Positions 29,400 through 40,894 of a stretch of DNA of 64,000 bases are shown here, piece by piece. The DNA is from Candidatus Schekmanbacteria bacterium (GTDB lineage: Bacteria; CSSED10-310; JACPHN01). The stretch is taken from contig JACPHN010000228.1 of the NCBI GenBank assembly GCA_016188575.1, positions 35,961 through 99,960 of the forward strand, read 5' to 3'. The number at the start of each line of letters is the position of its first letter. The first letter of the stretch is position 1. The position numbers and the translations under genes are program-made. Below the pieces are notes generated by a model. That model did no database searches. It saw only the letters and a list, made by a program, of their open reading frames with translations, and was not told the DNA's origin.

Positions 29400-29452
29400 C
29401 CGCCGCGGCTTGCGATCACCGCCTCCACACCGATCCCGGCAGCGGCCCGAGA

Positions 29453-29800
29453 TCAGGCAAAAATATCGATCAGCGTTCCGAGCATCCGGTCGGACGACTT
29501 CACGACGGCCGCGTTGGCTTTGAAGCTATTCGCGGCGTCGGAGCGCTCGACGGACTCCTCTGCGATGTCCGTGTTTGACAGCGTCTTGACCGAGCCGTCC
29601 TTGAAGGCCATGCGGGCCGTAGCATCAGCGTCTTCGACGCGGCCACGCACGCCCCCTCCAGCTCGCTCCTCCGCCCTGACTCGGCTCGCCCTGAATCCTT
29701 CGGTCTGCAGGTTGGCGACGTTGTTCGCCGATACCCCGACGCGTGACGCCTGTAACGACATGCCGGAAATCGCCGCCGACTGGGTAGAAATTGGGTTCAT
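29453..29800 (-). CDS. Flagellar basal-body rod protein FlgB/FlgC-family-like small protein (~115 aa), orphan
   Basis: The N-terminal block AISGMSLQASRVGVSANNVANLQTEGFRASRV is like the rod-protein block ...ANNLANANTPGYK. The C-terminal block VERSDAANSFKANAAVVKSSDRMLGTLIDI is like ...ERANFADNSLKYQ...VL...MLxxLIDI. No other flagellar genes are in the window. Confidence 0.5.
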   Translation of the reverse strand: MNPISTQSAAISGMSLQASRVGVSANNVANLQTEGFRASRVRAEERAGGGVRGRVEDADATARMAFKDGSVKTLSNTDIAEESVERSDAANSFKANAAVVKSSDRMLGTLIDIFA

Positions 29801-29978
29801 ATCAGAGACTATACGTCGCAGCTCGGACCGAATCAAGTGCATGTCCTATGCCCGCCGCTCGCGTCCGGAGGGAACAATACTTCACGCCGATCTGCACGCT
29901 CCTTCATAGCCAGGCGAAGGCGGCAGCCGGCGAACGCGGCACCGAGCGATTCCTTGTTCCTGGCATCCGCGCAGATTG

Positions 29979-29995
29979 TGGCGCGTTTCTTGCAT
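29979..29995 (+). promoter_or_regulatory. Sigma-54 (-24/-12) promoter TGGCGCgtttcTTGCAT upstream of the lipoprotein gene
   Basis: GG and GC are at the canonical 12-bp spacing (consensus TGGCAC-N5-TTGCW). It lies 53 nt upstream of the 30048 start codon, and an NtrC-family activator gene lies immediately downstream. Confidence 0.55.
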
Positions 29996-30047
29996 ATTGG
30001 CTCCAGCCAGGCTGGGACCGCCACTCAAACCGTAGGGAAAGGCACCA

Positions 30048-32363
30048 ATGATGCGCGGACGCATTCTCACAACATTTCTCGCACTATCTCTCATCGCGGC
30101 AGGGTGTACCAATGTGAAAATCGATTCACCCAAGAACGGTGGGCTCTATCCCGATGCTCCGGATTTCAAAGTAAGCTACAACAGTGAGCCGTCAGGCCTC
30201 ACCCTCAAGCTCAACGGCACGGATGTTACCAGTTTCTTCGCCGTGGGCTCCGCCGCCGCGACCGCGTCCGGCGACGCACTGGCCGCCTATGTCCTTCCCG
30301 GCGACAACCAGTTCGAGGTTACCCGGCCGTCTTTCGTGAGCCCCGTCCAGTTTCACTTCGATGTCGTCGGCCCTACCGTCAAGGTGACATCCGTTGACGA
30401 GGCCTCACCTCTCGTCGTTCACGGACGCGTCGAGGACCCGGCCGGTGTGGCGCGCTTGAGCTGCAATGGTGCCGCGGTCACCGTTTCCGGAGGCAGTTTC
30501 ACGGCCACCGTAGCCAACGCCGCCTTCGTCGGCTTCGAGGCGGAAGACGGCTTCGGACACGTCTCCACCACCACCTTTGCGCGGCCCGGCACTGCCCTCG
30601 GCTCCAGCATGGGCGCCCGCCTGAACAAGAGTGGCATCGCCTTCCTGGTGGCGGAAATCTCGAATCTCCTGGGCAAGCTCGACTTCGGCGAGCTGATCAA
30701 GGAGCTCAACCCGCTCTTCGACAAGAGCATCGGTGTGGCGTCCGCTCGCGTGGACGCAACGGATGTCGAGATCTCCGCACCCAAGGTCAGCCTGGCCGTC
30801 TCGCCATCCAACGATGGGACCTTCGATGTCGGAGTTGACATCTCGGACCTCGTCGTCTACGTCCACGCTACCGGAACCGTCATTGGCATTCCGTGGGAAA
30901 CCGACGGAGTCGTCTGGGCGGACCTGGTCAGCTTTGACGGTAAGGCGAAGGTCACCGTCACCAACCAGAAAATCGGTGTGGCGCTGAGCAATCTGTCGCT
31001 GGTTCTGAATGGGTTTGGATTCGACATCAGCGGCTTCCCCGATGTTCTGGAAGGTCTCTTCTTCGACCTGGTCGGCGATCTGCTTGAAGGCTTCATCAGG
31101 GACGAGCTCGCTACACGGATTCCCCCGTATATCGAAGAGTTTCTCAAGAATATCCCCTCTGACTTCCAGATCGATCTTGACGGCCACGCCTTCAGGATCG
31201 CGGCACTGCCCCAGGCGCTGACAACCAAGGACGAAGGCATGTCGGTCCACCTCGCCGCCTCCGTCAGCACCCTTACCCCAGTCGATGTGCCACCAGCCCT
31301 GGGGTCGCTCTACGTTGCTGGCGCGACGCCTGATCTGGGGACCAAGACGCCCGGAGGCAAGGCCTTCGACGCCGGCGCTGTCGTCTCGGGAAACCTGATC
31401 AATCAGGCACTCCTCGAGGGATACCGCGCCGGCCTTACACATGTCGGGCTTGACGAGCAGACCAATCCGCGAATTTCCCCGGCAGGTCTGCGCGGGATCG
31501 GCATGGAGATCCAGGGACTCTTTGATGGAGATGACGTGCGCTTCAACGTGCTGCCATCGAGCCCGCCGTATGCCGGCATTCGCGGCACCCAGACCGCGCT
31601 CGCTGCTCTGGCGATGGACGAGTTTACCTTCGAGCTCGAGCTGCGCAAGCAGGGTACCGACGACTGGCTGCTGGTCTTCGGGGCCGTTCTCGATATGAAC
31701 GTCCCCTTCCTCATCGGCGTCAGCGACAACAACACGGTCAAGGTCACGTTTGAAGAGGTGCCGACCGTGAAGATCCGCGACATCGACGACAGGGGCGTCA
31801 TTGACCTCGACGAGAAGCTCGTGCAAGCGATCATTGATTGGCTCTTGCCGCTCGCCCTGCCGTACCTCGCTGACATCGTCGAGGAAATCAAGATCCCGAG
31901 TTACGAAGGCTATGGCGTCTGGTTGCACGACTTGTTTGCCACCGGCTCCTCGACAGACTACATCGCTTTTGCCGGTAATCTGGTCAAGGATTCGACCCGA
32001 ACCCGCGCCGCGCGTCCGGAAACGTATGTGCTCGTGGAGGATGTTGCGTACACCTCGCGGTCCTTCGCGACCGAGGTCGCACCGGATTCCGCGCTGGATG
32101 GCAAGCTGGTGACCGTGTATGTCGCCGGCGATGTCCCCGGTGCCTCGGTGCTGCAGTACTCGTATCGGCTTGACAGCGGAGAGTGGTCGGTCTGGCGCGA
32201 GCGAACCGAGATCCACCTGCGTCATTTGCTCGCCGGCGATCACGTCTTGGAAGTGCGCAGCCGCACCCCGCAACTTGCGGTCGACCCCACGCCCGCACGG
32301 GTCGTGTTCCGGACTGGACCCGAGTCGTACAGGTTGACGTTGGGGCGACCTTTCGCCCGGTAG
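30048..32363 (+). CDS. Large lipoprotein (771 aa) with a lipobox signal peptide and a C-terminal Y_Y_Y-like domain
   Basis: MMRGRILTTFLALSLIAAGC is a signal peptide ending in the lipobox LIAAGC. The C-terminus VLQYSYRLDSGEWSVWRERTEIHLRHLLAGDHVLEVRSR resembles the two-component-regulator Y_Y_Y domain. The gene is preceded by a sigma-54 promoter. Confidence 0.8.
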   Translation: MMRGRILTTFLALSLIAAGCTNVKIDSPKNGGLYPDAPDFKVSYNSEPSGLTLKLNGTDVTSFFAVGSAAATASGDALAAYVLPGDNQFEVTRPSFVSPVQFHFDVVGPTVKVTSVDEASPLVVHGRVEDPAGVARLSCNGAAVTVSGGSFTATVANAAFVGFEAEDGFGHVSTTTFARPGTALGSSMGARLNKSGIAFLVAEISNLLGKLDFGELIKELNPLFDKSIGVASARVDATDVEISAPKVSLAVSPSNDGTFDVGVDISDLVVYVHATGTVIGIPWETDGVVWADLVSFDGKAKVTVTNQKIGVALSNLSLVLNGFGFDISGFPDVLEGLFFDLVGDLLEGFIRDELATRIPPYIEEFLKNIPSDFQIDLDGHAFRIAALPQALTTKDEGMSVHLAASVSTLTPVDVPPALGSLYVAGATPDLGTKTPGGKAFDAGAVVSGNLINQALLEGYRAGLTHVGLDEQTNPRISPAGLRGIGMEIQGLFDGDDVRFNVLPSSPPYAGIRGTQTALAALAMDEFTFELELRKQGTDDWLLVFGAVLDMNVPFLIGVSDNNTVKVTFEEVPTVKIRDIDDRGVIDLDEKLVQAIIDWLLPLALPYLADIVEEIKIPSYEGYGVWLHDLFATGSSTDYIAFAGNLVKDSTRTRAARPETYVLVEDVAYTSRSFATEVAPDSALDGKLVTVYVAGDVPGASVLQYSYRLDSGEWSVWRERTEIHLRHLLAGDHVLEVRSRTPQLAVDPTPARVVFRTGPESYRLTLGRPFAR

Positions 32364-32481
32364 CCGTAACCCCGATGACCGGTCCGGTTCTGCCGCCGGA
32401 CCGGCAAATAGCCGCCCTCCCTGCGCAACAGGGAGGGCTTTTTCTTGACAGCGCCCGCGTCTTGGCCTAGCCTGCTGGATC

Positions 32482-33873
32482 ATGAGCGAATCCGCCACCA
32501 TCGTCGTCGTGGATGACGAGCCACTCATGCTGAAGTTCTTGGTCAAGAGTCTTCGCAATGAAGGCCATGACGTTTTCGCGGCGACGAACGGGGAAGAGGC
32601 CCTCGCGCTCGTCGATAGCCACAACCCTGACGCGCTCATCGCCGATCTCAAGATGCCGGGAATGACCGGCATCGAGCTTCTGGAGAAGGCGAAGTCCCGG
32701 CGGGCCGGGCTGGATGTCATTGTCATGACCGGCTTCGCGACCGTCGACAGTGCCGTCGAAGCGATGAAAAAAGGCGCGGCAGACTATATTACCAAGCCGT
32801 TTTCGCCTGATGCCATCAAGCTCGCAGTGGCGAAGCTACTTGCTCACCGGCGCGTGCTGCGCGAGAACGACGCTCTCAAAGACCAGCTCGCCGAGCGGTT
32901 CGGCTTTGACAAGCTCATAGGCCAAAGCCGAAAAATGCAGGACGTTTACCGGATGGTGCAGACCGTTGCAGGCGCGACCGTGGTCGTGCTCATCGAGGGC
33001 GAAAGCGGGACGGGAAAAGAGTTGGTGGCGCGGGCAATCCATGCCAACTCGGCGCGCTCCGGTGGCCCCTTTGTCGCGGTCAACTGCAGCGCCCTGGTGC
33101 AGGGCTTGTTCGAGAGTGAGATGTTCGGGCATGAACGCGGCGCATTTACCGGCGCCGTGCAAACCAGACTTGGCCGCTTCGAGCTGGCGAACGGCGGCAC
33201 GATTTTTCTCGATGAGGTCAGCGAGCTGGCACAGGCAGCGCAAGTCAAGCTGCTGCGAGTCCTCCAGGAACGCCAGGTCGAGCGCGTGGGTGGCGCTCGG
33301 CTTCGTGACGTCGACGTCCGGGTAATCTCCGCCAGTAACCGGAACGTGCGCAAGTGCGTGGAGTCCGGGTCGTTTCGGGAGGATCTCTATTATCGTCTCA
33401 ATGTTGTCCGCATCGAGCTTCCACCCTTGCGGGAACGTCTGGACGATCTCCCGATTCTTGTCGAGCACTTCCTCGCGTCCGAAGCGCGTCGCCGCGGCGC
33501 CACGCCGAAGAGGCTCAGCTCGCGGGCTCTCGAAGCGCTGCTGCGCCACTCCTGGCCGGGGAACGTGCGCGAGCTGCAAAACATCATCGCCGGGGCCGTC
33601 GCGTTGTCGCCGTCCGCCGTGATCGTCCCCGAGCATTTTCCCCCGGGCGCGCTGCGCCCCGATGCCGATCCCGTCGGGGCGGACGCCCTACCTCTGCCCG
33701 GACAAATCTCCGGGACGCTCGTGGACGCTCTGGACGCCATCGAAAAGAGGCTGATCGCGCGGGCACTGGAACGTTGCCACTGGGTGCAAGTAGCGGCCGC
33801 CAAGGAGCTCGGAATCAAACGCGCAACGCTGCAGTACAAGATGGCCAAGTATGGCCTGCTTGGCAAGGCGTAA
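32482..33873 (+). CDS. Sigma-54-dependent response regulator (NtrC family): receiver, AAA+ sigma-54 activator and HTH domains
   Basis: IVVVDDEPLMLKFL...D54 region is the receiver domain. GESGTGKELVARAIH is Walker A and GAFTGA is the sigma-54 contact motif. A C-terminal Fis-type HTH is present. Confidence 0.9.
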   Translation: MSESATIVVVDDEPLMLKFLVKSLRNEGHDVFAATNGEEALALVDSHNPDALIADLKMPGMTGIELLEKAKSRRAGLDVIVMTGFATVDSAVEAMKKGAADYITKPFSPDAIKLAVAKLLAHRRVLRENDALKDQLAERFGFDKLIGQSRKMQDVYRMVQTVAGATVVVLIEGESGTGKELVARAIHANSARSGGPFVAVNCSALVQGLFESEMFGHERGAFTGAVQTRLGRFELANGGTIFLDEVSELAQAAQVKLLRVLQERQVERVGGARLRDVDVRVISASNRNVRKCVESGSFREDLYYRLNVVRIELPPLRERLDDLPILVEHFLASEARRRGATPKRLSSRALEALLRHSWPGNVRELQNIIAGAVALSPSAVIVPEHFPPGALRPDADPVGADALPLPGQISGTLVDALDAIEKRLIARALERCHWVQVAAAKELGIKRATLQYKMAKYGLLGKA

Positions 33874-34073
33874 CGACCCGTAACGAAATAACTGTGTCAA
33901 GCACCGAGGCCGAGCGAGAAGGCCGCTGGCGAGGAACGACGACGAAGCGTATCAATGGAGCGATACGGTGAGGAGGAGAGACGAAGCCAGCGGCCTTCGC
34001 AGCCGGCCGAATGCAACAGTTATCTCGTTACGGGTCCGAACTGCGCTGCGCGGTGGCCGTGATGTCGCGTCCA

Positions 34074-35930
34074 TTATCGAGCTTCTTGTGACCTCTCCTC
34101 CTGCTCGGGGGCCACAGGCAGCACAACGCGGAAGGTGGCGCCGAGCCCCGGGCTGCTCTCCACCTCCAGATGACCGCCAAGCTGATCGGCGATCTGGTGA
34201 CAGACAAATAGACCTAGCCCGGTCCCCTCTCCGGGCGGCTTTGTCGTGAAGAAGGGGTCGAACACAATCGGCAGTTGCGCAGCGGGAATCCCCGGCCCCG
34301 TGTCGGTGAAACTGATTGAAACACTGCCCGCGCGATCGGACATGGCGGGCTCGGAGCCTTTGCTCACGGTGATCGTGAGAGCCCCCGTTCCGCCCATCGC
34401 CTGTCCCGCGTTCAAGATGATGTTGGTGAATATCTGATGAAGCTGAATAGCGTCTGCCAACACCTCCGGCCCCCGCTCGCCGCACGAGATGCTGACAGAA
34501 ACGTGGCGCAGGGCCTTGTCGGCCGTAGTCAATGCCAGTGCCTCCCGCAGCACCGCCCCGACGGCCACCGGGCGAATGTCAGGCTGCGTGCTTCGGGTGA
34601 ACGCGAGCAGTTTCCGCACGGTGGCGGCAATACGGGTCAGGCCGCCGATGATCAGCTCCATGTCGTCGCGTTCCATCGACTCGTCAGCAGCCACCAGCTC
34701 CTGGAGATACCCGAGAATGCCGCCGAGCGGGCTATTGATTTCGTGGGCGATCCCTGCCGCGAGTCGGCCCACCGAGGCGAGCTTCTCGGTCCGCACGAGC
34801 ACGGCGTTGGTCTGCCGTAGCCGCTGATTGGCCGAGCGCAGCTCGGACGCCGTCCGGTCGAGTCCTTCGATCTTCTCCCCGAGCTCCCGTGCCATGTCGT
34901 TGAACGCCTTGGTGAGAATAAAGAACTCATCCCGCCTGTCCACGGCGATGCGATGCTCCAGGTGCCCCGCGCGGAGCCGCTCGGCGGCGACCACGAGGCG
35001 ATCGAGCGGTCGCAGCAGGTGCTTGGCCGTCAGAAAAGAGGCCAGCGTGACCAGGATTCCGAGGGCGGCGCCAACCAATACCAAGGTGCGGCGCGTCCGG
35101 GTGCGGATTGCTTCGGCTGGCTCACGCGAGATGGCGACACCCAGTATCGCGGACGGGTGCGGCAGGGAATGTGGAAGCGCCGCCGCGCTGACTGCATGAG
35201 AGATCCCCTCGATGTGTACTTCCGCGACACGTGTCAGGGAAGCGGCGTCTGGCGCTTCGCTCTGTACCAGCAGAGCCTCCGCGAGCTCCTCGACCCCACC
35301 TGGAATCGTGGAGATCGGGGCAATGTCCTTGCCAAGCACAAAAAGCTCCCCGCCAAGGAGCTTTTTCATCTCCGCGACAAATGTCGCGTCAATAACGCGG
35401 CTGGCGACTACCGTCGCGTAGGGGCTGGTGTCGCCGACCGCCACGCCGGCCTTCTGGATGAGCAACCCGCCTTTTGTCCGCAGCGCGAACCTGGTGCCTT
35501 TCCGCGCCAGTGAGCTGGGGATGATCTCGTCTTGCGCATCGGTCCTGGCTGCCGGTTGCGACGGGAAGGACCTCTTGAGCAGCACGCCGGAAGGGTCGAA
35601 CACCTCCAGGCAGTCCAGACCCAGGTCAGCCCGGTAGCGCGCGAGCAACCTGTCGAGCAATGCCTCATTATGGTCGAGAATCGCCACGCGCAACTCGTGC
35701 ACGCCGGCAAGAAGCGTCACGGCCGTTCCCAGCCGCTCGTCGCCCTGCGCAAAAAGCCGGACAGCCGCTGCTTGGAGCTGCTGGCGCCGAACATCGATCT
35801 CTTCGTCCAGCCTCCCCGACACGACGCTGATCGCTGCGGTCGTGGTAAACAGAATGGCGACAACGACCACTGCTTCGGTCAGGAGCAGCAGCTTGGTCCA
35901 GATGCGAAGATCAGGTTTGGTAAGGTGCAT
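34074..35930 (-). CDS. Sensor histidine kinase (N-terminal TM helix, periplasmic sensor, second TM helix/HAMP, HisKA, HATPase_c)
   Basis: AAGIAHEINSPLGGILGYLQ is the H-box and GTGLGLFVCHQIADQLGG is the G2 box. It is convergent with the response-regulator gene. Confidence 0.9.
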   Translation of the reverse strand: MHLTKPDLRIWTKLLLLTEAVVVVAILFTTTAAISVVSGRLDEEIDVRRQQLQAAAVRLFAQGDERLGTAVTLLAGVHELRVAILDHNEALLDRLLARYRADLGLDCLEVFDPSGVLLKRSFPSQPAARTDAQDEIIPSSLARKGTRFALRTKGGLLIQKAGVAVGDTSPYATVVASRVIDATFVAEMKKLLGGELFVLGKDIAPISTIPGGVEELAEALLVQSEAPDAASLTRVAEVHIEGISHAVSAAALPHSLPHPSAILGVAISREPAEAIRTRTRRTLVLVGAALGILVTLASFLTAKHLLRPLDRLVVAAERLRAGHLEHRIAVDRRDEFFILTKAFNDMARELGEKIEGLDRTASELRSANQRLRQTNAVLVRTEKLASVGRLAAGIAHEINSPLGGILGYLQELVAADESMERDDMELIIGGLTRIAATVRKLLAFTRSTQPDIRPVAVGAVLREALALTTADKALRHVSVSISCGERGPEVLADAIQLHQIFTNIILNAGQAMGGTGALTITVSKGSEPAMSDRAGSVSISFTDTGPGIPAAQLPIVFDPFFTTKPPGEGTGLGLFVCHQIADQLGGHLEVESSPGLGATFRVVLPVAPEQEERSQEAR

Positions 35931-35985
35931 GAGAGCTACTCAGGTCGCAGCGCTTGGGCCGTTAGACTGCGCGCGGCTGCTCACG

Positions 35986-37887
35986 TCAGCGGACGGTTAG
36001 AACCGAGTTTTGGCCGCCGAATGGGTCCGGTTTGAACCGATCCGCCTTGATGTCGGAGAGCCACATGACGTCATTGACGACAAACTTGTACTCATATTCA
36101 CCCGGGACCACGTGCAAGGTGATGCGCCACGATCCGTCGCTTGCCGGCCCGGCGAGCTGATGCGAGAGCCTGTTCCAGCCGTTCATGGACCCGGCCACTG
36201 CGACGCAGCGCAGCCGCGGCGGCCGAAAGCGAAACACGAGCGGACCGGATCCGCCCTCAGGAATCACGACGACGCTGCTTTTCCCGCGATCCACTTCAAC
36301 ATACTTCGCGGTCCCTAGCTCCACCCTCTCAAAGGCTGCGGACAGCGGGTCTGCGAACCAATTTGTTTCGTCCACCAGGAAATTATAACGATATCGCCCC
36401 GGAGGAACATCGATGGAGACCGTCCAGACGCCGTCGCCGTCGAGGTCCTCCAGTAGATGAGATACCTTGTTCCAGTGGTTGAAGTCTCCGACGAGCGCAA
36501 TCGTGGACGGGCGGTAGACGACAAACCCGCCATCGGCGTCAGCTTCGAAGTAGTCCGCGGGTTGAAAGCGCAGCTCCACGGGAGTCCGGGGAACCGATCG
36601 CCCGACGAAGATGACCCCGTTGTGACCGCCAAAACCGTCGTTGACGTAGGCATCCGCCTCGGGGTCGGCCATCCACACGTGACCATCGAGAACAAACTTG
36701 TAGGGGTAGTCACCCGCTGGAAGGTCGATGGTGAGGATCCACAGCCCGTCTGCACCGCCGTCCTTGAGCAAATAGGCTTCATCCTGCTTGAAGGCGCCGT
36801 GCTCGGTGTTCGCCCAGCCGTTGAAGCTCCCCGCAAGCTGCACGGATTGGGTCCCTGCAGGGGGGCGGAACCGAAAGGTGACCGGGATCCTGGCGGATTC
36901 CCGTGGTGCGTCCTCGTCGCCAGGGGCCAGATCCTTTTCTATCCGAGCGAGTAGCGTCTGCAGGTGCGCAAAAAGGGGATCGGTCGGAAACGTTGCAAAG
37001 GAGAATAGGCGCCACCGCGCCTTCGATCCGCTGATGCGCAGGACCGAGGCGCGCCCTCCGAGGAGGATCTCATCCTCGGCGGCGCTGGGGTCGGAAAACC
37101 AGTCGTTCCCATTGACGAGGAACTTGTAGTGATATGTGCCAGGTTCAAGGTGAAGCCGTGTGGTCCAGACTCCGTCATTATCTCGGTCTTCCATCGCATT
37201 TGCCGTGCGATCCCACTCGCCCTTGTGCCCAAGTGAAAAGCTCCCGACGAGAAAGACGCTGCGAATGGGGCAGAGAGAAATGGCGCGCGTCAACGTTGCG
37301 CGTGCGGCAAGGGGATCGTTTAGGTGTAGCTGCGCGCTGGCGAGGCGCTCGTAGACGTTCAGCCAGGAAGGGCGGTCGAGCAACAAGGAAGCAAACGCTG
37401 CTGCCGCCTCCTGCCATCGCCCGCTCGCGAGAGCGGCATCTGCCGTCTCGAAGCGATCGAGGTCGGCGGCCAGACGATCGACATCGTCGGCTGCGGGCTC
37501 GAGAGCGCGGGCGTTGGCGCAGGCATGACGCGCTGCCTGGACATTTCCGCGGGCCGCCTCGAGCTCGGCCAGTAGCTTCGTGGCGCTGCTGCGGTCGACG
37601 GCAGCGCCGCGCGGAATCAGCCGCATCGCCCGCGTAACCGCGTCGATGGCGCGGTTCAGGAGGTGGGCGTCGCCGTAGATACGGGCGAGCAGAAGCGCTG
37701 GGTAATGCCAGTTCGGCGCAGTGCGGATGGCGGCGTTGAGCTCTTCTGCGGCTTCACCATAGCGCCTTGCCTGATGCAGAACGATGGCACGCTCGACGCT
37801 CCGCTCCGCGTCGTCATGGGGGCGGGCGCCGATCAGTAGCGCAGTGCAGAAAATCAGAACGCGAAGCGAACGCTGCGAGCGCGTCAT
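35986..37887 (-). CDS. Secreted TPR-repeat protein with four tandem CBM48 / AMPK-beta glycogen-binding-like (E-set) domains (~633 aa)
   Basis: MTRSQRSLRVLIFCTALLIGA is signal-peptide-like. An N-terminal TPR region is followed by four units such as VFLVGSFSLGHKGEWDRTANAMEDRDNDGVWTTRLHLEPGTYHYKFLVNGNDWFSDP. Confidence 0.75.
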   Translation of the reverse strand: MTRSQRSLRVLIFCTALLIGARPHDDAERSVERAIVLHQARRYGEAAEELNAAIRTAPNWHYPALLLARIYGDAHLLNRAIDAVTRAMRLIPRGAAVDRSSATKLLAELEAARGNVQAARHACANARALEPAADDVDRLAADLDRFETADAALASGRWQEAAAAFASLLLDRPSWLNVYERLASAQLHLNDPLAARATLTRAISLCPIRSVFLVGSFSLGHKGEWDRTANAMEDRDNDGVWTTRLHLEPGTYHYKFLVNGNDWFSDPSAAEDEILLGGRASVLRISGSKARWRLFSFATFPTDPLFAHLQTLLARIEKDLAPGDEDAPRESARIPVTFRFRPPAGTQSVQLAGSFNGWANTEHGAFKQDEAYLLKDGGADGLWILTIDLPAGDYPYKFVLDGHVWMADPEADAYVNDGFGGHNGVIFVGRSVPRTPVELRFQPADYFEADADGGFVVYRPSTIALVGDFNHWNKVSHLLEDLDGDGVWTVSIDVPPGRYRYNFLVDETNWFADPLSAAFERVELGTAKYVEVDRGKSSVVVIPEGGSGPLVFRFRPPRLRCVAVAGSMNGWNRLSHQLAGPASDGSWRITLHVVPGEYEYKFVVNDVMWLSDIKADRFKPDPFGGQNSVLTVR

Positions 37888-38461
37888 GCTGCCGGATGCA
37901 ACTGGCGCACCAAATAGGTAGCGCGGCATCTCTTGCCCTCGAGCACAGGTGTACATTCTCGACATCGCGCCCACGCAGGTTTCTGGTGCAACGGCGGCGC
38001 GGTCAGCTTGTACCGACGAGCAAAAGGCTTTCCTCCGTCGCTTCCGTCATACCCACCCTCTATCACTCGTGCGCCGAGCTGACAAGTCCGCAGCGCCTAT
38101 CCCATTTTATCCCGTGCCCAAACGATTCCAGTCGCCGGGCCCGTGGGCGCGCAAACAAGATCATGGTATTCCCCCCTCGGGTATCCCGTGGCCGACTGAC
38201 TGTGGGCCGCGCGCGCTCTGCCAGGTTTTCGGCAGCGCGTGTCCCGCGCGACGCGGCCTGAAGAACCCGACGTTGTCCACATCGGCTGACGTTCCTGGCA
38301 CAGCGCGTGACTTCTCGTGCACAATTCTATTTGTCCGTCGTGCGGGCTCCTGGGGAAGAAGCGCTTATTGCCGCGTTCGCGCGCGATCAGAATGGATGGC
38401 GCGATTTTTGCTAGATGCAAGGTGCCACGCCTGACCACCGTCCTCTGCGTTGGAGTATACC

Positions 38462-40894
38462 ATGTCCCGCACCGCTCGCTACCTCAGCAGCATCGCCTGT
38501 GCGCCAGTCCTCCCCATCGTCGCCATCGCGGCCGCACTGCTGGTGTCCTCGCCGCCCCTGCTGCATGCCGCTGCGGCCGACAACAACGTTGAGTGGGACG
38601 GACTCTTCAGCGATCAGTCTGCGAACTTCATGACCCCAACCGAACCCAGCGCGAGTGACAACATAACGGTTCGGCTCCGGGCGTTTCGCAACGACCTGAC
38701 CGCGGCTGCGGTCCGCTACTGGGACGGTGCCGAGCGCTTTGTGAGCATGACAAAGACGTCAACGGACACCGTCTACGACTACTACAGTGGCGTGATCCCG
38801 GCGCACAGCGAGACGATCTGGTACCGGTTCCGTATTACGGACGGTAGCAAGAGCGCCTGGTACAATCCGCTCGGCCCCTCGGATGCCGAGCCGTCGTCGC
38901 GCGATTTCCAAATCATCCCGGGCCTCAGCACTCCCGACTGGCTCAAGAATGGCGTGATCTATCAGATCTTCGTAGACCGTTTCTTCGACGGCGACTCCGG
39001 CAATAATGTCGGGGCGAACGAGTATTCGCTCGGTGTTCACTGGGACGGCGACCACCAGGGAGATCCGGCGCGGGCGTACACGCACTCGAGCTGGTCTCAC
39101 CAGCCGGATAATGCCCTGAAGCACCTGGCAAATGCCGGCACAGATCCCGGCGCACCGCAGGACGAAGGTCTCGGCCGCATGACCTATGCCGCCAATGTCG
39201 ACTTCTTCGGCGGCGACCTCGCCGGCGTCGCGGCGAAGCTCGACTATCTGCAGGACCTCGGCGTCACCGTGCTGTACCTCAATCCGATTTTTGCCTCGCC
39301 CAGCAATCACAAGTACGACACCATGGATTTCCGCATCGTCGATCCCCACTTTGGAGGCAACGCCGCGCTCCACGACCTGATCGACGCAGCGCATGGACGT
39401 GGCATGAAAGTCGTCATCGACGGCGTCTTCAACCACACCGGGCACTGGCACCGCTGGCTGAATCGGCGTGATGGCGATGAGGCGCTCGCCACGGGCGACT
39501 ATGCCCCCTACGCGGAGGACGGTGCCTTCCAGGCGGTCGAGACTGGGCAGTTTTCCGTCAGCAGTGACGGCGTCGCCGCTTCCACGGTCAATGCCGCCGT
39601 GGACCGCTATACCTTCCGGGACATGGAGACCTATACCGCGGCCTGTCAGAGCCCGCTACCCAAGAATGGCGTCATCGAGGCTGACGAATACTTCTCGTGG
39701 TGGGGATTTTCGTCACTTCCCAAGATCAACTATGACGCAGACTCAAACGGCGATGGCATGGAGGAGCTCCGATACTGGCTCTACGGCGGTCCGAATGGCA
39801 TCGGCAACCTTGGCGAATCTGCCTCCGGAACCGTGATCGCGGGGAGCATCGCCGAGGAAGTCGGCACCACCAAGCCGATTGCGCGGCTATGGATCGAGGA
39901 CTTCGGCGTCGACGGTTGGCGGCTCGACGTTCCGAACGACGCGGGCGGGCGCAGCGCGGGGTACCCCACGTCGAACGACCACGCGATTTGGAAAGGCTTC
40001 CGCAAGGCAGTCAGGAACGCGCGCCTGGACACGTACATCTTTGGCGAGCTGTGGACAGAAAGCGATGTCGCTCCCTACCTCGACAACGGTGACGAGTTCG
40101 ACGCCGTCATGAACTACCACGGCTTCGCCGATCCCGTATCGCTGTGGGTCAATGGTCAAAACACGGCAGCCGAAAAGACCACTACCGACCTCGGCCAGGC
40201 GGACATCATGACTGTCGACCAGTTGGACTCGTGGCTTTCAGGAACGCGGGCGAGCTTCGCAGGTCCAATCGTCTATGCGATGGACAATCTGCTCGATAGC
40301 CACGATTCTCCGCGGTTCCTGCGCCGGACCAAGGCGCACAAGATTCTCAAGGGATGGAAAGAGGGCTCATGCGGATTCTATTCCAACCCCGACTTCTATG
40401 ATGGCAGTGGAGAAGACGTGTGGAAGCTGAAGCTGGCACTGTTCCTACAAATGAGCTACGTTGGCGCGCCTTCGCTGTTCTATGGCGATGAAGTCGGGCT
40501 TTCCGGAGCCGACGATCCCTCGTGCCGGCAGCCCTTCAACTGGAACTATGGCCAGCAAAGCTGGCGCGTGGAGCTTCGCGATCTGGTCAAGAAGCTTATT
40601 GCCGCTCGCAAGCAATATTCGGCGCTGCGAACGGGCTCGATGATGACCTTGTATCGGCACAACGACAATCAGATATACGCGTTCGGCCGCTGGGACAGCG
40701 GTGCTCGCATCACGGTTGTGCTGAATAACTCGAGCTACGCGCAAGACGTGTCGGTTCCGGTGTGGAAACTCGCCATTCCCGACGGCAACAACGTGCTGGA
40801 AGATGCGCTAACGGGGGCGCGGCTGACGGTCGCCTCCGGACATGCTACGGTGCATGTCGATGGCCACTTTGGAGCGCTGCTGGTAAACCGCTGA
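38462..40894 (+). CDS. GH13 alpha-amylase-family glycoside hydrolase (neopullulanase/cyclomaltodextrinase-like) with an N-terminal accessory domain
   Basis: The conserved GH13 regions are present: DGVFNH (I), GWRLDVPND (II), FGELW (III) and LLDSHD (IV). The start MSRTARYL has a GGAG site upstream. Confidence 0.9.
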   Translation: MSRTARYLSSIACAPVLPIVAIAAALLVSSPPLLHAAAADNNVEWDGLFSDQSANFMTPTEPSASDNITVRLRAFRNDLTAAAVRYWDGAERFVSMTKTSTDTVYDYYSGVIPAHSETIWYRFRITDGSKSAWYNPLGPSDAEPSSRDFQIIPGLSTPDWLKNGVIYQIFVDRFFDGDSGNNVGANEYSLGVHWDGDHQGDPARAYTHSSWSHQPDNALKHLANAGTDPGAPQDEGLGRMTYAANVDFFGGDLAGVAAKLDYLQDLGVTVLYLNPIFASPSNHKYDTMDFRIVDPHFGGNAALHDLIDAAHGRGMKVVIDGVFNHTGHWHRWLNRRDGDEALATGDYAPYAEDGAFQAVETGQFSVSSDGVAASTVNAAVDRYTFRDMETYTAACQSPLPKNGVIEADEYFSWWGFSSLPKINYDADSNGDGMEELRYWLYGGPNGIGNLGESASGTVIAGSIAEEVGTTKPIARLWIEDFGVDGWRLDVPNDAGGRSAGYPTSNDHAIWKGFRKAVRNARLDTYIFGELWTESDVAPYLDNGDEFDAVMNYHGFADPVSLWVNGQNTAAEKTTTDLGQADIMTVDQLDSWLSGTRASFAGPIVYAMDNLLDSHDSPRFLRRTKAHKILKGWKEGSCGFYSNPDFYDGSGEDVWKLKLALFLQMSYVGAPSLFYGDEVGLSGADDPSCRQPFNWNYGQQSWRVELRDLVKKLIAARKQYSALRTGSMMTLYRHNDNQIYAFGRWDSGARITVVLNNSSYAQDVSVPVWKLAIPDGNNVLEDALTGARLTVASGHATVHVDGHFGALLVNR

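Follow-up and report, generated by a model that had tools for sequence, protein, structure and literature searches.

Eukaryotic lipid binders of the BPI/LBP/CETP type are double-TULIP proteins (PF01273 and PF02886). In bacteria, TipA of Bdellovibrio bacteriovorus has a BPI-like double TULIP with affinity for lipids and membranes, which the beta-sandwich adaptor TipB opens; its measured length is 14 nm, and its authors noted double TULIPs fused to beta-rich domains in the AlphaFold database (bioRxiv 10.1101/2025.09.09.675085). DUF4403 proteins are further bacterial double TULIPs, for which a periplasmic location and, in most cases, acylation have been predicted (Levine 2019, PMC6791001). Here we analyzed a 64-kb stretch of DNA (the window) from a metagenome-assembled genome (MAG) of Candidatus Schekmanbacteria, in which a gene for a 771-amino-acid (aa) lipoprotein lies behind a putative sigma-54 promoter and next to the genes of a two-component system.

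The lipoprotein fits the recently recognised bacterial BPI-like double TULIPs but matches no existing model. Its sequence identity to BPI/LBP/CETP proteins is 9-15%; unlike these, it is bacterial and lipid-anchored, and its modelled TULIP body is flanked by two immunoglobulin (Ig) domains on the N-terminal side and by a third, Y_Y_Y-like one at the C-terminus. We liken it to TipA by description. In contrast to TipA, it is a lipoprotein, and its gene has no operonic TipB-like partner and is directly followed by a terminator; the protein itself carries fused beta-sandwich domains. No conserved small adaptor-like neighbour was found across the loci compared. DUF4403 (PF14356) and YceB/DUF1439 are predicted periplasmic TULIP lipoproteins of diderms; the window protein has no Pfam match to either, and the additional Ig and Y_Y_Y-like domains set its family apart.

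Sigma-54 promoters beside NtrC-type two-component systems are a textbook arrangement. In AtoS/AtoC, NtrB/NtrC and ZraS/ZraR, as in the window, a regulator with REC, AAA+ and helix-turn-helix (HTH) domains and a kinase with HAMP, HisKA and HATPase_c domains have consensus -24/-12 targets nearby; in contrast to those systems, the window genes are convergent and not operonic. The initial annotation of the locus, whose coordinates all checked out, had suggested a lipoprotein under positive feedback from its own two-component system.

The gene product is predicted to be a double-TULIP lipoprotein

The protein, which is identical to NCBI protein HYV63_30480, starts MMRGRILTTFLALSLIAAGC, and a Shine-Dalgarno-like sequence (GGGAAAGG) lies 6-14 nt before its ATG. 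Judged from the sequence, it is an envelope lipoprotein with a signal peptide and a lipobox (LIAAGC, with Cys20 encoded at 30105-30107). The cysteine is invariant in seven of seven close homologues, whose lipoboxes read LAGC, LSGC, LSAC or VAAC, and the lipobox regular expression was matched by 80 of 156 family members, including nearly all full-length ones. Pfam and NCBIfam annotation of the protein was empty.

An AlphaFold2 model was computed from an alignment of seven sequences (mean predicted local distance difference test score, 72; predicted template modelling score, 0.62). Between the Ig-like domains, the model shows two TULIP units, each consisting of a helix, a long beta-sheet and a long helix (residues ~186-410 and ~440-650). 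The two tubular domains are joined back-to-back via a central sheet, which is the arrangement that defines a double TULIP. According to the model, a complete double TULIP of the BPI/LBP/CETP type makes up the protein's body. This dominant feature had been missed in the initial annotation. Among its homologues, one close relative matches PF02886 (LBP_BPI_CETP_C) at E 1e-3, the distant relative P0341 passes the same model with 26.7 bits (cut-off, 23 bits), and another, P0363, nearly passes JHBP in Pfam.

As a word-indexed homology search returned seven proteins only, the family seemed rare. This impression was corrected by an exhaustive profile search of 1.84 billion cluster representatives, which gave 2678 matches at E<=1e-3, 1022 at E<=1e-10 and 223 at E<=1e-30. 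Most full-length members have a lipobox, followed by a conserved xVxIxSP...VY..P.F pattern. Many members are without the C-terminal domain; in others, the region N-terminal to the double-TULIP core is a different one. No relatives of the lipoprotein were obtained from two scans of GTDB species genomes, and a scan of metagenomes yielded one distant locus (L012), which has no sigma-54 site. On the strength of these profile matches, the lipoprotein belongs to a large family for which Pfam and NCBIfam hold no model.

The C-terminal domain is a remote relative of Y_Y_Y

The Y_Y_Y domain (PF07495) is found in Bacteroides hybrid two-component sensors (PDB 4a2l, 3v9f, 3ott). A Y_Y_Y-like domain at the C-terminus of the lipoprotein had been proposed initially, together with a comparison against the PF07495 hidden Markov model (HMM) as a check. 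The resemblance proved real but remote, and a direct match was not obtained: neither the window protein nor its six close homologues gave a PF07495 match at E<=10. Alignment by hhalign against the three Y_Y_Y domains of known structure was in the expected register (P=0.0018) with a probability of only 15%, and a search of PDB sequences with the profile of the C-terminal domain returned noise only. The decisive link is a transitive one. The C-terminal profile matches the repeats of other proteins repeat for repeat, in regions where Pfam detects Y_Y_Y at E 1e-48 to 4e-54, and an HMM of the C-terminal domain alone picks the same stretches as Pfam's best Y_Y_Y stretches. Because of this connection through tandem-repeat proteins, we regard the C-terminal domain as a remote Y_Y_Y relative by profile comparison.

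The view that such a domain is unusual outside sensor kinases was refuted by large non-kinase proteins with 9-31 tandem copies. These proteins (P0292, P0306, P0308, P0318 and P0322) comprise 997-5876 aa; their repeats, homologous to the C-terminal domain, are scored by Pfam simultaneously as Y_Y_Y, PKD and Big_13, and some of them carry STAND/AAA ATPase modules.

The sigma-54 promoter is conserved in one clade

The element TGGCGCGTTTCTTGCA deviates by one base from the consensus TGGCACG-N4-TTGCW, and its GG and GC dinucleotides are exactly 10 nt apart. It ends 52-53 nt before the ATG, in agreement with the strong -24/-12 element 53 nt upstream of the gene that had been described before. Transcription is predicted to start near 30004-30006, i.e. 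~43 nt before the ATG. No sigma-70-type site was listed by the promoter scanner on the plus strand upstream of the gene. The strict pattern TGGC-N7-TTGCW occurs seven times in the window (expected, 0.89; seven reached in 0 of 100 shuffles). Three of the seven precede genes for exported proteins by 49-67 nt: (i) the lipoprotein (29979); (ii) a GH13 protein (38397); and (iii) a secreted 550-aa protein (48253). The window also contains the genes of two sigma-54 activators (32482-33873 and 50060-51898).

The three closest homologues (P0002-P0004) share 49-51% identity with the window protein and 63-77% with one another. Their genes were located on metagenome contigs (L001/L002, L003 and L005/L006), and in each case a GG-N8-TTGCW element is present 38-58 nt before the ATG (CGGTACGATTCTTGCT, CGGCATGTTTCTTGCT and GGGCACAAATCTTGCT). 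The remaining intergenic DNA of these orthologous loci showed no significant alignment to the window. Given a background frequency of 1.4e-4 per nt per strand in these sequences (~0.014 per 100-nt upstream region), the chance of finding all three ortholog elements is ~3e-6, or ~2e-4 with L001 and L003 taken as a single lineage. Since its position has been kept across four lineages (the window and these three), the promoter is probably functional and the gene very probably sigma-54 dependent. The element was absent upstream of the distant homologues in L004, L007, L008 and L012 (30-40% identity, lower G+C); sigma-54 control, as read from these upstream regions, is therefore a trait of one clade and not of the whole family.

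A terminator-like match overlapping the -24 element (29968-29985) was attributed to chance, with eight such matches against 6.9 expected.

The lipoprotein gene is separated from the regulator gene

Between the stop codon of the lipoprotein gene and the ATG of the regulator gene lie 118 nt, which contain an intrinsic terminator of two hairpins. The second hairpin has a 10-bp stem with eight G-C pairs and is followed by a U-run. Folded together, the two hairpins reach a minimum free energy (MFE) of -43.9 kcal/mol (z -4.78), and none of 200 shuffled sequences folded as well. The terminator is followed by a sigma-70-like promoter, which was recognised by eye and not listed by the scanner; its -10 hexamer TAGCCT agrees with the consensus at three of six positions. 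This hexamer is so near the ATG at 32482 that the mRNA would be leaderless, and the gene is without a Shine-Dalgarno sequence. Because the terminator and this promoter lie in between, the regulator gene would not be transcribed from the sigma-54 promoter; as far as these signals tell, regulator and lipoprotein genes are not co-transcribed.

At homologous loci, the lipoprotein gene is accompanied by other neighbours, e.g. YajQ and a FliH-like protein in three loci, a 7TMR-DISM hybrid kinase in one and an AraC-type protein in another. No synteny was found between the window and the ortholog loci with respect to YajQ, FliH-like, SMC-like or other neighbours. Given the terminator and the lack of synteny in seven other loci, the lipoprotein gene appears to be a monocistronic unit.

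The two-component system lies next to alpha-glucan genes

The presence of a sigma-54-dependent response regulator downstream of the lipoprotein gene was confirmed, with REC, AAA+ GAFTGA and Fis-type HTH intact. Its Pfam matches comprise PF00072 (Response_reg; 9.8e-30), PF00158 (Sigma54_activat; 4.5e-69), PF02954 (HTH_8; 1.1e-14) and AAA_lid_14, and the translation shows the Walker A motif GESGTGKE as well as GAFTGA. All NCBIfam scores stayed below the equivalog cut-offs (AtoC, the best, 448.6/714 bits; NtrC, 428/559; ZraR, 370/760). The sensor kinase was likewise found as described, convergent on the minus strand and with HAMP, HisKA and HATPase_c domains, which follow two transmembrane segments flanking a periplasmic domain of ~240 aa. 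AtoS is its best NCBIfam match. The nearest full-length homologues of the kinase (29% identity) have dCache-like sensors and are encoded directly upstream of NtrC-type regulators in hydrogenase loci. Since AtoC and AtoS are the best matches and relatives of the kinase pair with NtrC-type regulators, it is plausible from these similarities that kinase and regulator form a cognate pair. Orthologues of the two were not found; the matches of the regulator were flat at ~50% identity, and the relatives of kinase and regulator alike gave no information on targets.

The kinase gene starts 55 nt downstream of a gene for an exported TPR protein with four CBM48/AMPK-type glycogen-binding modules, and the two genes form a probable operon pair. 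This pair diverges from a GH13 gene, the product of which is exported and resembles maltodextrin glucosidase or cyclomaltodextrinase. The GH13 gene is preceded by its own sigma-54 element, and TGGCGCG is common to the GH13 and lipoprotein promoters; it occurs in none of the other five strict-pattern matches. We consider the GH13 gene the probable primary target of the two-component system, which by gene order is tied at least as closely to the starch/glycogen genes as to the lipoprotein gene; the system may sense a glucan.

Two side observations concern these genes. The true start of the TPR-CBM48 gene is probably ATG 37887, and just upstream of it lies a sigma-54-like site (TGGTGCGCCAGTTGCA, 37897-37912, minus strand). 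If this site is real, the kinase operon could itself be sigma-54 dependent and possibly leaderless; a chance match is equally possible. Between the convergent stop codons of regulator and kinase genes, a nearly perfect hairpin of ~165 nt fills the gap (33860-34045; MFE -92.8 kcal/mol, z -8.95). Its outer arms are CCCGTAACGAAATAACTGT (33877-33895) and the complement at 34016-34034, its inner arms GAAGGCCGCTGG and CCAGCGGCCTTC. It has no Rfam match and no second copy in the window, and it could be a bidirectional terminator or a structured RNA or element. An Rfam search of 29400-38600 gave no match.

A 12-mer is shared by the lipoprotein and GH13 promoters

The tandem repeat upstream of the lipoprotein promoter contains the 12-mer GCGAACGCGGCA (29930-29941) and, 16 nt upstream, a copy with one mismatch. 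An exact inverted copy precedes the GH13 promoter. Exact shared runs of this length between the two sigma-54 upstream regions occurred in 15 of 1000 dinucleotide shuffles and in 2 of 600 controls with real sequence. Allowing up to one mismatch, the 12-mer is found seven times in the window (1.95 expected), and three of the seven copies are at the lipoprotein and GH13 promoters. The shared motif is suggestive, not conclusive, that one regulator may serve both promoters. We also noted that the 12-mer region 29933-29942 is 90% complementary to the -24 region 29978-29987 (AACGCGGCAC vs GTGGCGCGTT).

The orthologs have a palindrome 91-102 nt upstream of their sigma-54 element. It reads GTGAC-N6-GTCAC in L001 (7852-7867) and L003 (7848-7863), and TGTGAC-N6-ATCACA in L005/L006 (L005 4754-4771). 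This palindrome is a candidate enhancer for a distal activator, judged from its recurrence. A block at 29870-29909 that appeared conserved with the orthologs in a MAFFT alignment was rejected, as local-alignment statistics were unsupportive for the window (p 0.15-0.36).

Other features of the window

All features discussed here are collected in Table 1. G+C is ~61-66% around the locus. Divergent from the lipoprotein gene lies an orphan gene for a FlgC/FlgG-like protein of 115 aa that has the N- and C-terminal flagellar rod motifs only. Among the open reading frames (ORFs) scanned in the window, no other flagellar genes were found. In orthologous loci, the gene after that of the lipoprotein encodes a FliH-domain protein. 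TTGATT-17-TATAGT, separated by 7 nt from ATG 29800, precedes the FlgC-like gene (29800-29836, minus strand); its mRNA would be leaderless, and a Shine-Dalgarno sequence is missing. Nearly the whole lipoprotein gene is covered by a 773-aa antisense ORF (30405-32726, minus strand), which we took for a shadow ORF of the kind common in high-G+C DNA, given that the homologues found agree with the plus-strand frame.

The third well-placed sigma-54 element, TGGCAATCGGCTTGCA (48253-48268), lies 67 nt upstream of ATG 48335. The secreted protein of ~550 aa encoded there has no Pfam or NCBIfam match. Convergent to its gene is that of the second sigma-54 activator (50060-51898, minus strand), which is NifA/NorR-like and without a receiver domain; this layout mirrors the lipoprotein locus. 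A further sigma-54 pattern match, at 48676, lies inside the gene and is probably due to chance.

Table 1. Features in and around the lipoprotein locus, with positions in the window
Feature	Position	Strand	Basis
Orphan FlgC-like rod-protein gene	29453-29800	-	Flg_bb_rod and Flg_bbr_C
Tandem direct repeat GGCGAAGGCGGCAGCC / GGCGAACGCGGCACCG, candidate activator-binding element (putative role)	29913-29944 (35-66 nt 5' of -24)	+	
Sigma-54 -24/-12 element TGGCGCGTTTCTTGCA	29979-29994 (GG 29980-29981, GC 29992-29993)	+	Consensus match, conserved position
771-aa lipoprotein gene	30048-32363	+	ORF, homologues
Two Ig-like domains, predicted (residues ~24-180)	30117-30587	+	AlphaFold2 model
BPI/LBP/CETP-like double TULIP, predicted (residues ~186-650)	30603-31997	+	AlphaFold2 model, weak sequence matches
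C-terminal Ig/Y_Y_Y-like sandwich, predicted (residues ~685-757)	32100-32318	+	Model, profile comparison
Intrinsic terminator, hairpins 32376-32406 and 32414-32438, then TTTTTCTT	32376-32446	+	Folding
Sigma-70-like regulator promoter TTGACA-17-TAGCCT	32445-32473 (ends 8 nt before ATG)	+	Reading by eye
NtrC/AtoC-type response regulator gene	32482-33873	+	Pfam, NCBIfam
Sensor histidine kinase gene, convergent with regulator	34074-35930	-	Pfam, NCBIfam
TPR gene with four CBM48 modules	35986-37974	-	Pfam, NCBIfam
Inverted 12-mer copy TGCCGCGTTCGC	38369-38380 (17 nt 5' of GH13 -24 element)	+	Exact match
Second sigma-54 element TGGCGCGATTTTTGCT	38397-38412 (49 nt 5' of GH13 ATG 38462)	+	Consensus match
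GH13 alpha-amylase-family gene	38450-40894 (real ATG 38462)	+	NCBIfam

Discussion

With moderate confidence, we favor a joint reading in which the lipoprotein gene is a monocistronic, sigma-54-dependent gene for a double-TULIP lipoprotein, and in which the adjacent regulator and kinase most likely drive GH13 and may co-activate the lipoprotein promoter. Sigma-54 holoenzyme would bind the element at 29979-29994 as a closed complex, which would be opened by an ATP-hydrolysing enhancer-binding activator, either the adjacent regulator after phosphorylation by the kinase or a distal one. The resulting monocistronic mRNA would end at 32376-32446, and its product would be exported, acylated at Cys20 and displayed on a membrane. 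Under inducing conditions, lipids or other hydrophobic molecules of the envelope would be bound or transferred by the lumen of the double TULIP, either within the periplasm or on the cell surface, with the Ig domains acting as spacers or as TipB-like modulators of TULIP opening. Binding or shuttling of lipids is proposed as the most likely function by analogy, because of the precedent of the bacterial double TULIP TipA and of the predicted DUF4403 lipoproteins. Kinase and regulator would be expressed from their own promoters, the kinase together with the CBM48 protein, and GH13 would be controlled via its near-identical sigma-54 promoter. Through the shared element GCGAACGCGGCA, the lipoprotein promoter may be a further target of the regulator in this genome. 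We infer the ligand, the location, the signal and the identity of the activator in this scheme.

Several observations weigh against this reading. Regarding the fold, the structural model was built on only seven sequences, the window protein matches neither of the BPI families PF01273 and PF02886 at E<=10, and the top match of the family profile in PDB was LBP at a non-significant E of 0.68. Regarding the promoter, rpoN was not found in the 64-kb window, and the source organism is an uncultured MAG. Regarding the activator, the sharing of the 12-mer is moderately significant (p ~0.003-0.015); its sites, 17-66 nt upstream of the -24 elements, lie unusually near to the promoters for enhancer sites; and in part it is similar to the -24 element (TGCCGCGTT vs TGGCGCGTT), so that the shared motif may in part reflect similarity of the promoter cores and not a separate binding site. 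The palindrome of the orthologs is degenerate in the window (TCTGC-N8-TCATA, 29892-29909), and a sigma-54 activator gene was found beside the lipoprotein gene in none of seven homologous loci (L001-L008, L012). Because the orthologs keep the sigma-54 promoter without an adjacent activator and with a different palindrome, a distal activator is at least as plausible as the adjacent regulator.

The last point leads to a reading that we regard as quite possible without preferring it, namely that the two-component system serves the alpha-glucan locus only, that the lipoprotein promoter uses an activator encoded elsewhere, as the promoters of the orthologous loci must, and that the adjacency is coincidental. 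Besides the three lineages that keep the element with no activator gene at their side, the palindrome in L001, L003 and L005/L006 suggests a conserved distal regulator; the kinase gene is operon-linked to the CBM48 gene, GH13 has its own sigma-54 promoter, the terminator isolates the lipoprotein gene, and the window contains a second activator gene. However, the window has two motif copies in place of an intact palindrome, the motif is shared exactly with the GH13 promoter, and the two core promoters have TGGCGCG in common, unlike the other five matches.

The model of the initial annotation went further and regarded lipoprotein and two-component system as a dedicated envelope module, with the lipoprotein as main output or co-sensor and with positive feedback. 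Adjacency, an intact activator 118 nt downstream and candidate binding repeats upstream of the promoter speak for it, but a strong terminator and a separate promoter between the genes leave no room for feedback by read-through, the adjacency recurs in none of the seven other loci, and the linkage of the kinase is to the glucan genes. We consider this model improbable, and the notion of the lipoprotein's own system under positive feedback is not upheld. Very improbable, in our judgement, is that the -24/-12 match is a product of chance in GC-rich DNA and that a housekeeping sigma factor transcribes the lipoprotein gene. GG-N8-TTGCW does occur ~20 times in the window, often within genes; yet the position of the element is conserved in four lineages, with the low chance probabilities given above, no sigma-70-like site precedes the gene, and sites of the strict consensus are enriched in the window.

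The regulatory arrangement is ordinary, and the value of the locus lies in the encoded protein. Tentatively, and as a picture that is rather unlikely to hold as a whole, the lipoprotein may represent an undescribed family of at least 223 clusters at 50% identity (E<=1e-30), in which a double-TULIP tube on Ig spacers, ~25 nm long, would span the periplasm and act as an inducible shuttle or bridge for lipids between the membranes; one clade would be sigma-54-controlled, and in this genome a glucan-sensing two-component system may have taken over the control. The length is an estimate by analogy, taking the 14 nm of TipA for the tube and adding roughly 4 nm for each of three Ig domains.

Bacterial BPI-like double TULIPs have barely been studied, the TipA preprint of 2025-26 being the first structural work. 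The locus indicates a sizeable lipoprotein family that has a double-TULIP fold and no model in the libraries searched, and its conserved inducible promoter could help to identify the conditions that lead to production of such proteins. The family bears on the movement of lipids across the diderm periplasm and on possible bacterial roots of the eukaryotic BPI/LBP/CETP fold.

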